Below are positions 26,837 through 55,275 of a stretch of 64,000 nucleotides of DNA, piece after piece; position 1 is the stretch's first letter, and each line of letters opens with the position of its first letter. The stretch lies in NCBI GenBank assembly GCA_040954595.2, contig CM082579.2, positions 11,593,734-11,657,733 of the forward strand, read 5' to 3'. Both the position numbers and the translations under genes were made by a program. Source of the stretch: Balanoglossus misakiensis. Lineage: Eukaryota; Animalia; Hemichordata. Below the pieces are notes generated by a model. That model ran no database searches, had not been told where the DNA came from, and was given only the letters and a program-made list of their open reading frames with translations.

Positions 26837-28057
26837 CTAGGGAGCCGCAAATACTTGCACTTCACAGAGCGTCAACATCTGAATGACGTCGATGAGTTGA
26901 ACGCTGACGTAGCGACCGCTCATTGGTACATCACATCCACAGACGATGTTAACAGTCGGTTGTTTGGCCACTCTGCCAGAAAGTGGGCCATTGCCACATA
27001 CAGGATTTTCTGCGTGGTTGGGACTGTCGCCGACGCGTATTAAAGCATTTTTTAATCGGAATGCTGTGAGGAGGAAGAAAAAAAGCAATTAATGCAAGCC
27101 TTGCACTCTTTTATGAGCAATATTGTAATGTGTTCCTGAATACTGACATGGTTGCTTTTATAATGGCATTTACCTATTAAAATTTAGGAATTGTCTTTAT
27201 TGACATTAAAATGTAGAATCGTCAGACAAGAGGTCTTGTATTTTAGGTAAGCTTGTCTGATTAATTAAAGAACCTACATCTCTATGTACGCCAAGTAATA
27301 AAATTCAAACTTTTTATGACACTAGGATAGGTGCAGGGTTTAACAAGAATTGTAACTTTTGTGCCTGTTAACACAATGGGCATTGTGTTGTTTGTCCTGT
27401 ATCACATGAGAATTTCCTCGTAGTATAAACTACCCAGCGGCGCGAGAGCTCACAAGGTATTTTGGAATTTGTAAAGGGGTCTATCAAGGTATTTCAAAAA
27501 GGTAGATCTGTGGCTGTGAGAAGAAAAGTCAACATAAGTTATGCCCATCTGAAATGTATACACATAAACCCATTAACCGTTAACAAGAATTTCATATGTT
27601 TTGTCTTTTGAGTTCGTGAGACTCTAAGTTCTGCAATAAAATAAATAGAAAAAAGATCATGGTACAGTTGGCACTGGTTGAGCTGCTTCTGTCACCGTGA
27701 CCTACTCATGTCCACTACCATTGTATGCTCCCGCGCTAACTTTTGAACTCTCGCTGTAGTTGGACTGACCCAATAAAACACATCGCCGCACATCAGAATA
27801 CACTGCTGTGTTTCACTTACCGCAGCAATCCTGGCGGTTGGTCAAGGTCACTTGGTGAATTTGTCGCGTTTGTGCGAGGTCGAGGTGCAGCCAAGGTTGG
27901 GACTCTTTCAGCGTCATGGAACAGGAGCCGTCGGCCAGAACACCATTCGTGTTGCCATCTATAGCCCTGGAAGCCTCGTAGACGCTTTTGGTTGAGCTTT
28001 GCTCCACCGAAGTTGAAGGTGTGACTATGTTTACAACGTTTTCCGGCAGAATGCATG
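26837..28057 (-). CDS. F-type lectin domain 4, C-terminal (exons 28057-27821, 27063-26837)
   Basis: [43 protein letters not shown]. Confidence 0.88.
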
Positions 28058-55000: not shown

Positions 55001-55275
55001 TGAAAGTTGATTTCCAAAACAGCGGCTAGTCTCTGTGTTGACTCCGAGGAGAGAAAATAAAGTTTGTGATTTTTTTTATGAAAACCAGATAATGAACACA
55101 ATGTTTCCTTTGCTTTAAAAAAAATCTCTTTATATATTTTAGCAAAGGCAAGAACTAAAAAGTTTGGAGGATTATCATTTATCTGAAAACACTGTAATGT
55201 TTGTGTCAAGCTAAACTTACCAGCCACGTGTCTGCCGACGAGCACAACGGCCACGACTACCACCAGTAGTTTCAT
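26837..55275 (-). CDS. Giant secreted multidomain lectin: signal peptide + LamG/ConA-like + 10 pentraxin domains + T/E/P linker + 4 F-type lectin domains (~3,133 aa)
   Basis: 33 GT-AG coding exons in consistent phase, summed length 9402 nt (divisible by 3), from ATG 55275 ([19 protein letters not shown]) to TAG 26839-26837. No transmembrane segment seen. Exon coordinates are given in the module features below. Confidence 0.88.
28937..29716 (-). CDS. F-type lectin domain 3 plus Pro/Thr linker (exons 29716-29480, 29233-28937)
   Basis: [47 protein letters not shown]. Confidence 0.88.
29931..30954 (-). CDS. F-type lectin domain 2 plus Pro/Thr linker (exons 30954-30721, 30230-29931)
   Basis: [47 protein letters not shown]. 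Confidence 0.88.
31227..31891 (-). CDS. F-type lectin domain 1 (exons 31891-31652, 31469-31227)
   Basis: [56 protein letters not shown]. Confidence 0.88.
32320..32866 (-). CDS. Acidic Thr/Pro-rich mucin-like linker (exons 32866-32807, 32445-32320)
   Basis: [61 protein letters not shown], encoded by phase-1 symmetric exons. Confidence 0.78.
33431..33610 (+). repeat. (ACAAC)n pentanucleotide microsatellite
   Basis: Direct reading. Confidence 0.95.
33636..34683 (-). CDS. Pentraxin module 10 (exons 34683-34145, 33738-33636)
   Basis: [30 protein letters not shown]. Confidence 0.85.
35057..36033 (-). CDS. Pentraxin module 9 (exons 36033-35495, 35168-35057)
   Basis: [24 protein letters not shown]. 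Confidence 0.85.
36056..36503. mobile_element. TTAA-flanked MITE-like element with short perfect TIRs
   Basis: ttaaaccccggtgcgg (36056-36071) and ccgcaccggggtttaa (36488-36503). Confidence 0.6.
36645..36995 (+). repeat. Diverged ~178-bp tandem duplication
   Basis: atgggcc..gacca..aggcatatg..ttaa.ggga..agttcaacttgt..ccatctaatt..tttctcaaaa is present twice. Confidence 0.65.
37053..38678 (-). CDS. Pentraxin module 8 (exons 38678-38335, 37864-37670, 37164-37053)
   Basis: [30 protein letters not shown]. The main exon is split by an extra phase-0 intron. Confidence 0.82.
39124..40292 (-). CDS. Pentraxin module 7 (exons 40292-39757, 39235-39124)
   Basis: [23 protein letters not shown]. Confidence 0.85.
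40715..41718 (-). CDS. Pentraxin module 6 (exons 41718-41189, 40829-40715)
   Basis: [30 protein letters not shown]. Confidence 0.85.
41955..42917 (-). CDS. Pentraxin module 5 (exons 42917-42382, 42069-41955)
   Basis: [30 protein letters not shown]. Confidence 0.85.
43520..43925 (+). repeat. Diverged ~197-bp tandem duplication
   Basis: atgatcgccgaaac at 43520 and 43717 with shared downstream tccttccc..tcgctatcgccagt. Confidence 0.7.
44079..44264. mobile_element. Near-perfect ~186-bp palindrome (hairpin MITE)
   Basis: acagaacttcatgacctctgcgcgcgatctgtgcaatatgg..gagaaggtgtattcttc pairs with gaagaatacaccttctc..ccatattgcacagatcgcgcgcagaggtcatgaagttctgt. Central actcgctatcgctcgt. Confidence 0.8.
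44597..45994 (-). CDS. Pentraxin module 4 (exons 45994-45456, 44708-44597)
   Basis: [30 protein letters not shown]. Confidence 0.85.
47190..48215 (-). CDS. Pentraxin module 3 (exons 48215-47677, 47304-47190)
   Basis: [30 protein letters not shown]. Confidence 0.85.
47322..47436 (+). repeat. (ATC)n/(ACC)n trinucleotide microsatellite
   Basis: Direct reading. Confidence 0.95.
48647..51082 (-). CDS. Pentraxin module 2 (exons 51082-50547, 48761-48647)
   Basis: [30 protein letters not shown]. Confidence 0.85.
49183..50515 (+). repeat. Compound microsatellite array (CATC)n/(CATA)n/(CA)n with three interspersed ~120-bp units
   Basis: Units start at ~49360, ~49703 and ~50039, separated by (CATA)n. 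A long (CA)n runs 50158-50416. Confidence 0.92.
51585..53004 (-). CDS. Pentraxin module 1 (exons 53004-52454, 51699-51585)
   Basis: [16 protein letters not shown] (pentraxin HxCx[ST]W signature), GNAIAW C-terminal exon. Confidence 0.85.
53412..54047 (-). CDS. Concanavalin A-like/LamG3 domain exon
   Basis: [75 protein letters not shown] is typical of invertebrate LamG3/ConA-like domains. Confidence 0.8.
54662..54960. mobile_element. Second copy of the 13.7-kb MITE family
   Basis: Begins ttaaagggcgacgataatctcatgcgcatg and is reverse-complement similar to 13700-14074. Confidence 0.55.
55221..55275 (-). CDS. Signal-peptide exon of the poly-pentraxin/F-lectin gene
   Basis: MK plus a hydrophobic core plus VAG. 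Donor G|gtaagt at 55221/55220. The exon acceptor is at ~55331, so a 5'UTR exon lies upstream. Confidence 0.8.

Follow-up and report, generated by a model that had tools for sequence, protein, structure and literature searches.

An acorn worm gene model joining ten tandem pentraxin domains to four F-type lectin domains

The 64,000-nucleotide stretch of Balanoglossus misakiensis analysed here (contig CM082579.2; hereafter the window, with position 1 as its first letter) carries on its minus strand a real, conserved gene of apparently undescribed architecture that combines pentraxin domains (PTX) with F-type lectin domains (FTLD). In order, it encodes a signal peptide, a LamG domain, ten PTX, a Thr/Glu/Pro linker and four FTLDs. 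We anticipate, with a probability of about 0.6, that the product is a secreted multivalent cross-linker of glycans or surfaces in acorn worm mucus or innate immunity, and that it likely works independently of calcium. Four observations underlie this reading: the domain order, the one-to-one correspondence of positions with Ptychodera flava, the lost Glu/Asp pair of the pentraxin calcium site and the lost fucose-binding His of the FTLDs.

Gene structure and conservation among hemichordates

Six-frame translation and reading of splice sites gave a coding sequence of 9,402 nt, running from an ATG at 55275 to the stop codon at 26837-26839. The 33 exons are in phase, with the terminal stop as the sole stop, and encode 3,133 amino acids (aa; predicted chain mass 345 kDa); GT-AG borders occur at all 32 introns (182-1785 nt). 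This rebuilt model agrees with a preliminary description of the window, which had claimed one open, phase-consistent 33-exon reading frame of about 3,133 aa. Exon 1 (55221-55275; 18 codons plus 1 nt), the strongest signal-like exon upstream of PTX1, encodes the predicted signal peptide. Since this is the only strongly hydrophobic 19-mer, the chain has no transmembrane segment, as had also been proposed. Exon 2 (53412-54047) is a phase 1-1 cassette encoding a LamG/ConA-like domain, with PF13385 as the sole Pfam family passing the cut-off.

Each PTX unit consists of a large exon (phase 1-0) and a small exon (phase 0-1), PTX8 having one additional intron. All 11 large-exon pieces match Pfam PF00354 above its curated cut-off; with Pfam E-values to 1e-23, ten such exon pairs in matching phase far exceed what chance would give. 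When every one of the six frames of the window was scanned with a profile, exactly ten PTX units emerged, with no hidden eleventh in the introns. The Cys-to-Cys linkers between neighbouring PTX measure 5-6 residues at all nine junctions. Behind PTX10 lies a Thr/Glu/Pro-rich linker (exons 32866-32807 and 32445-32320; 62 aa with 15 T, 14 E and 8 P), followed by the FTLDs, in all four of which the first exon matches F5/8-type C families in Pfam.

The closest proteins are hemichordate RefSeq models annotated just as "uncharacterized". P. flava XP_070535667.1 (2,925 aa) combines a signal peptide and four FTLDs with ten PTX that correspond one-to-one with the window order, and is 73.3% identical to the window protein over 2,907 columns. 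This predicted protein independently supports one long gene and, together with the Pfam matches, the earlier claim of ten PTX and four FTLDs on one chain. The model from Glandiceps talaboti (XP_078000496.1) begins within a PTX2-like domain and continues through PTX 3-10 and four FTLDs. Domain by domain, the window PTX are 64-85% identical to those of P. flava and 56-73% to those of G. talaboti, values that likely place the source among enteropneusts closer to Ptychodera than to Glandiceps. PTX1 (exons 53004-52454 and 51699-51585) is 64% identical to its P. flava counterpart; PTX8 (exons 38678-38335, 37864-37670 and 37164-37053) is the best-conserved position (85% and 73%). In the tree, positions cluster by orthology across species, with weak support only around G. 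talaboti 2 and 6. Because of this position-by-position orthology with P. flava, each PTX position has its own long-conserved identity.

The number of units is less constant. P. flava isoform X1 has exactly ten PTX in the same order as the window, and isoform X2 starts with an additional PTX5-like unit (94% identical to PTX5) spliced ahead of PTX4. G. talaboti XP_078000497.1 contains the end of PTX1 and a second PTX2-like unit, sister to the first unit of XP_078000496.1 (85%); the adjacency of these two models is deduced from their consecutive accession numbers. The P. flava and G. talaboti loci therefore probably hold at least 11 PTX units each, although the extra units may instead reflect a haplotype that was not collapsed or a partial gene nearby. 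An unnamed 571-nt record was weighed as a missing Glandiceps PTX3-like unit and was not used. The nearest paralogues (for example XP_077999955.1 and XP_070546312.1) have three PTX of a non-calcium type like that of the window gene. Six hemichordate members of this three-PTX family have a tail that is charged or rich in Thr, together with none to two FTLDs lacking the His, and the third PTX of these paralogues is sister to PTX10 (exons 34683-34145 and 33738-33636).

The coding exons of the predicted 33-exon gene are confirmed, whereas a transcript that joins LamG to PTX1 is only predicted. A search of sequencing runs for positions 45300-54300 listed no RNA data set containing them, a result that carries no information on expression. 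The preliminary description had placed LamG in the same chain. The exon is real and in phase, but in the P. flava ortholog model the signal peptide runs directly into PTX1, with no LamG between them. Relatives of the exon were found as small stand-alone secreted proteins in P. flava, G. talaboti and Saccoglossus kowalevskii (hemichordate ones about 50-57% identical), in a search limited to proteins of 116-370 aa, in which fused forms could not appear. Given these relatives and the P. flava model, LamG would be an optional exon or else a fusion specific to this lineage.

It is quite conceivable, if somewhat short of even odds, that the signal peptide and LamG form a short stand-alone product, and that the long form splices the signal exon to PTX1 or uses another first exon. 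Free signal-LamG proteins in the three species and the LamG-less P. flava model are in keeping with this, as is the 1-1 phase of exon 2, which makes the exon skippable. Read-through of the LamG donor meets a stop 20 codons on, with a polyadenylation-like hexamer at 53097, and a short isoform arising in this way is possible. On the other hand, the donor is canonical and placed where relatives splice to a tail exon. Neither a tail exon nor a second signal-peptide exon was found in the 407-nt gap between LamG and PTX1 (53005-53411), which leaves PTX1 as the next acceptor.

Altered calcium and fucose sites

CRP is described as binding two calcium ions via Asp60, Asn61, Glu138, Gln139, Asp140, Glu147 and Gln150 (PMC6503050). 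With residue equivalence set via aligned canonical domains and NPTX, no window PTX has an equivalent of Glu138 or Asp140. The GQEQD site of NPTX reads, from PTX1 to PTX10, GGRLY, GQWQA, GQRQT, GQWQA, GQRQT, GQYQS, GGRLS, GQRQT, GQKQT and GQHQL. None of the N61, E138, D140 and Q150 equivalents is kept in nine of the ten domains, and PTX7 (exons 40292-39757 and 39235-39124) keeps one. Across the deca-type PTX the Glu equivalent occurs in 1 of 29 and the Asp equivalent in 0 of 29; the canonical tandem PTX aligned alongside keep both acids (21/21). The two-calcium site of CRP and SAP is absent from the window PTX, which, judged by these residues, are not calcium lectins of the CRP/SAP type. Calcium-dependent binding of phosphocholine or phosphoethanolamine is likewise predicted to be absent. 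At the old calcium position PTX2, 4 and 6 have Trp/Tyr, versus Arg/Lys in PTX3, 5, 7, 8 and 9 (PTX9: exons 36033-35495 and 35168-35057). The substitutions are largely conserved by position and so support the earlier idea that each position has its own binding face, if not the CRP/SAP calcium site, which is lost.

Each window PTX has 5 to 7 cysteines. An N-to-C disulfide staple is reported to be present in the long pentraxin PTX3 (a separate protein, not the third window domain) and in NPTX1, and to be lacking in short pentraxins (PMC9388099). Beyond the core pair, the cysteine positions of the window domains fit a staple of this type, and we predict the same pairing. AlphaFold2 folded every domain of P. 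flava PTX1-5 (predicted local distance difference test, pLDDT, 81). The fold is nearest to NPTX1 (Z 29.6) and NPTX2 (Z 29.1), with a root-mean-square deviation (rmsd) of 2.0, and then to SAP (Z 27.8), the long pentraxin PTX3 and CRP (Z 27.1), with an rmsd of about 2 Å for SAP and CRP. PF00354 matches and the beta-sandwich fold of the P. flava domain models place the domains in the pentraxin superfamily. Sub-threshold Pfam and fold matches to clostridial receptor-binding domains were rejected as reflecting the shared LamG fold only. The five-domain model gave no confident inter-domain arrangement on a shallow alignment (28, 30, 23, 8 and 6 rows per domain), with a predicted template modelling score (pTM) of 0.43 and linkers at pLDDT <50. 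It does not superpose on structures of tandem LamG domains (rmsd 12-27 Å), a mismatch that says nothing at so low a pTM.

The best PDB matches of the FTLD are MsaFBP32 and eel lectin, and the sequence identifies it as an F-type lectin domain. The calcium motif h2DGx is kept in all four domains (AIDGN/AVDGN; AIDGN in FTLD1), and so is RxD (as RxDCC). The fucose-binding triad of FTLDs is given as H...RxDx4(R/K) (PMC5712786). The His position is occupied by Arg in FTLD1 (exons 31891-31652 and 31469-31227), by Lys in FTLD2 (30954-30721 and 30230-29931, including a Pro/Thr spacer) and by Met in both FTLD3 (29716-29480 and 29233-28937, also with a Pro/Thr spacer) and FTLD4 (28057-27821 and 27063-26837, including the stop); the FTLD3 replacement was read from direct alignment to MsaFBP32 and eel lectin. 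The last basic residue is kept in three domains and is Asp in FTLD1, and none of the four has the full triad. The His is also replaced in all four FTLDs of both P. flava and G. talaboti. Of the multivalent lectin tail claimed earlier, the four domains are present, but in degenerate form.

Proposed function and alternative readings

We infer the secretion, ligands, shape and role of the window protein along the following lines. Each PTX would be disulfide-stapled from N to C as in NPTX1 and the long pentraxin PTX3, with 5-6 residues leading to the next domain. Stapled domains on such short joints could form a compact jointed chain or zigzag, in which heads of the 2/4/6 type and the 3/5 type alternate, and avidity would arise because the domains are repeated covalently, not because they assemble into a ring. 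The former calcium pocket would now present Arg/Lys/His/Asn or Trp/Tyr. With these replacements, calcium-free binding of anionic or neutral glycans is likely for the heads, which would each have a preference of their own and could attach to microbial or particle surfaces by avidity. The FTLD tail, kept at a distance by an O-glycosylated hinge, would likely attach to a second surface (host glycocalyx or mucus) via a site that is weakened or no longer specific for fucose. In this way the protein would link particles or microbes with mucus or cells. Among the immune-cell markers listed for Schizocardium are genes of Nptx-like and fucolectin-like type, which may or may not include an ortholog of the window gene (PMC13554239).

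Several points weigh against this cross-linker reading. Loss of both canonical sugar sites equally fits protein-protein or structural roles, and FTLD residue changes of this kind can mean lost sugar binding (PMC5712786). The long pentraxin PTX3 is reported to form planar tetramer rings without a calcium site (PMC9388099), so calcium loss is compatible with rings. Linkers this short and conserved, and a count of ten shared by the window and P. flava X1, point to a defined quaternary shape, and a pTM of 0.43 on shallow alignments is no demonstration of flexibility.

The history of the array bears on its possible shape. The window PTX are 25-54% identical to one another. A quick tree of 29 domains groups PTX3 (exons 48215-47677 and 47304-47190) with PTX5 (42917-42382 and 42069-41955) at a support of 99.8, and PTX2 (51082-50547 and 48761-48647), PTX4 (45994-45456 and 44708-44597) and PTX6 (41718-41189 and 40829-40715) with each other at 90.5; PTX1, 7, 8 and 10 fit this even/odd alternation poorly. 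The internal intron of PTX2 contains a long TACA/CA microsatellite block (49083-50545), with a related copy near 11654. Mean identity is higher at lag 2 than at lag 5 in all three species (40.8 vs 36.3, 42.1 vs 38.0 and 44.7 vs 39.9). Approximately unbiased (AU) tests, for which the i/i+5 pairs were chosen after the first tree was known, rejected the clades 2+7 (p 0.00017), 3+8 (p 0.00005), 1+6 (p 0.0057) and 4+9 (p 0.0051), but not 5+10 (p 0.118). With a period of two and four of five such pairings rejected, the array therefore grew in two-domain steps and not by doubling of a pentamer, although two-step growth alone does not forbid a ring.

The period of two raises the possibility, which we hold only tentatively, that five (or four plus two) rigid heterodimer modules (2-3, 4-5, 6-7, 8-9), each with a composite site, are strung in a chain. 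Five heterodimers had been one option in the preliminary description. This would be compatible with the cross-linker reading and is its most specific form. The Trp/Tyr versus Arg/Lys division at the old calcium position is consistent with such pairs, and the extra units in relatives would fit duplication of even-odd pairs. The four domains outside the clean alternation speak against it; moreover, two-unit duplication needs no functional pair and is a common product of unequal crossing-over.

It is similarly doubtful that the protein is a non-immune structural or adhesive scaffold (in mucus gel, burrow lining, egg coat or sperm recognition) that binds proteins in the manner of the tandem LamG domains of laminin and neurexin. 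The loss of both the canonical carbohydrate and the calcium sites would suit this role, as would the slow position-specific evolution (56-85% identity between species), since many immune receptors evolve fast. FTLDs are also reported to act in oyster fertilisation, and the hemichordate epidermis is described as highly secretory (PMC13554239). The Schizocardium immune-cell markers argue the other way, and so do the calcium motif and RxD kept in all four FTLDs, which suggest a maintained pocket.

The preliminary description had suggested as a possibility a genetically encoded CRP/SAP-type decamer, with the ten PTX closing into two stacked five-membered rings and displaying ten different binding faces; we consider this improbable, given the rejected pairings (5+10 apart), the extra units in P. 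flava X2 and probably G. talaboti, the three-PTX paralogues, the NPTX-like domains with their predicted staple, and the lost calcium/phosphocholine site. Moreover, a single 345 kDa chain of divergent domains is not a cyclic oligomer of near-identical 20-30 kDa subunits. Natural pentraxin rings are reported with 3 to 7 members (PMC6503050, PMC9388099; PDB titles were likewise used), and for this reason ten is not uniquely meaningful. What favours a ring is the exact count of ten collinear domains in the window and P. flava X1, the uniform linkers, the ring formed by the calcium-free long pentraxin PTX3 and the lengths of other arrays. Among 163 proteins scanned (the top of score-ranked searches, a sample that favours long arrays; four isoform or cluster duplicates were dropped), tight tandem PTX runs were 2 (31 cases), 3 (9), 4 (1), 5 (4), 6 (1), 8 (1), 9 (1) and 10 (2) domains long. 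Four of the seven runs of at least four PTX outside the window ortholog group are five long, hinting at single-chain pentamers in deuterostomes.

Exactly five tandem PTX of the canonical calcium type (GQEQD) occur in P. flava XP_070546223.1 and in Branchiostoma XP_078594462.1 and XP_078594602.1. G. talaboti XP_077982065.1 has five canonical PTX behind one other N-terminal domain, and in S. kowalevskii XP_006812501.1 a Thr spacer divides the array into 5+4, domains 1 and 6 being sisters. Each array forms its own clade, so the number five was maybe reached independently, and these proteins are likelier than the window gene to be single-chain pentamers. The AlphaFold2 model of XP_070546223.1 (8, 22, 29, 30 and 6 rows per domain) gave a pTM of 0.41 and no confident arrangement; not being a known ring, this protein is no positive control for ring closure. 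The broader proposal, that deuterostome invertebrates repeatedly encoded whole pentraxin rings on one chain, with five-PTX proteins as single-chain pentamers and the window protein as a lectin-tethered, calcium-independent hetero-decamer with a non-fucose tail, likewise appears very unlikely.

Genomic neighbourhood and comparison with known systems

Downstream of the gene and on the same strand lie exons that belong to a giant E3 ligase resembling RNF213 (mysterin), at 4485-5300 and neighbouring positions (about 1-6300), which match RNF213 structures at E 3.5e-14. RNF213 is an antibacterial immunity gene in mammals. Near-identical local duplications occur at 21695-23510, 14253-14991 and 56807-59068 (spacings of about 1.5 kb, 439 nt and 1.9 kb); listed with them is a 302-nt inverted repeat around a 107-nt tandem array (regions including 15121-16747). 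These are possibly a non-autonomous transposon or assembly duplications.

Pentraxins usually gain avidity by oligomerising identical subunits. This hemichordate lineage appears to have replaced such oligomers with ten different, long-conserved domains on one chain, and to have rewired the calcium site of the pentraxins as well as the fucose His of the F-lectins. The ten pentraxin and four F-lectin pockets form a natural panel, and the array is a test case for how tandem pentraxins pack: in rings, in pairs or as strings. Should ring closure hold, it would offer a natural template for single-chain pentraxins in which each position can be addressed; otherwise, the gene would be one more lineage-specific acorn worm lectin mosaic. 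The literature searched, which covers few subscription papers, gave no description of tandem multi-pentraxin chains; with the orthologs standing as uncharacterised RefSeq models, this leaves in place the earlier impression that the architecture is undescribed. Bishnoi et al. 2015 reportedly surveys hemichordate FTLD architectures and may list a related one from Saccoglossus.

Mosaics of pentraxin and FTLD have been described in Xenopus and in groups from reptiles to non-placental mammals; for hemichordates, an expansion of FTLD architectures is reported (PMC5712786, PMC12221842). In both the window and P. flava models, a single chain predicted to be secreted carries PTX as well as FTLD, as in the Xenopus pentraxin fusion proteins (PXN1-XENLA and a five-FTLD + PXN chimera; PMC5712786, PMC12221842). 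However, the Xenopus fusions have one PTX instead of ten, and the FTLD of PXN1-XENLA is N-terminal, whereas those of the window are C-terminal and have lost the canonical fucose His. With CRP and SAP the window protein shares the pentraxin fold and a signature of the H-x-C-x-T/S-W type; unlike them, it is not built of single-domain near-identical subunits, has lost the calcium ligands and has extra predicted N-to-C disulfides. The best sequence and structure matches are the long pentraxins NPTX1, NPTX2 and PTX3, whose staple the cysteines fit, and PTX3 also lacks the calcium site. Long pentraxins have an N-terminal coiled-coil and one C-terminal PTX, whereas the window protein has no coiled-coil oligomeriser and takes its multivalency from ten divergent tandem domains; NPTX, in contrast to the window PTX, keeps GQEQD. 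The tail resembles MsaFBP32 and AAA in FTLD sequence, two-exon phase-1 repeat units, h2DGx and RxDCC, but differs from them in its triad His (Arg, Lys, Met, Met) and in the third basic residue gone from FTLD1. The closest likeness is to XP_070535667.1, XP_078000496.1 and the three-PTX paralogues, which share the non-calcium PTX type, the Thr-rich hinge and the FTLD tail; the paralogues differ in having three PTX and zero to two FTLDs, and the P. flava ortholog model in its lack of LamG.

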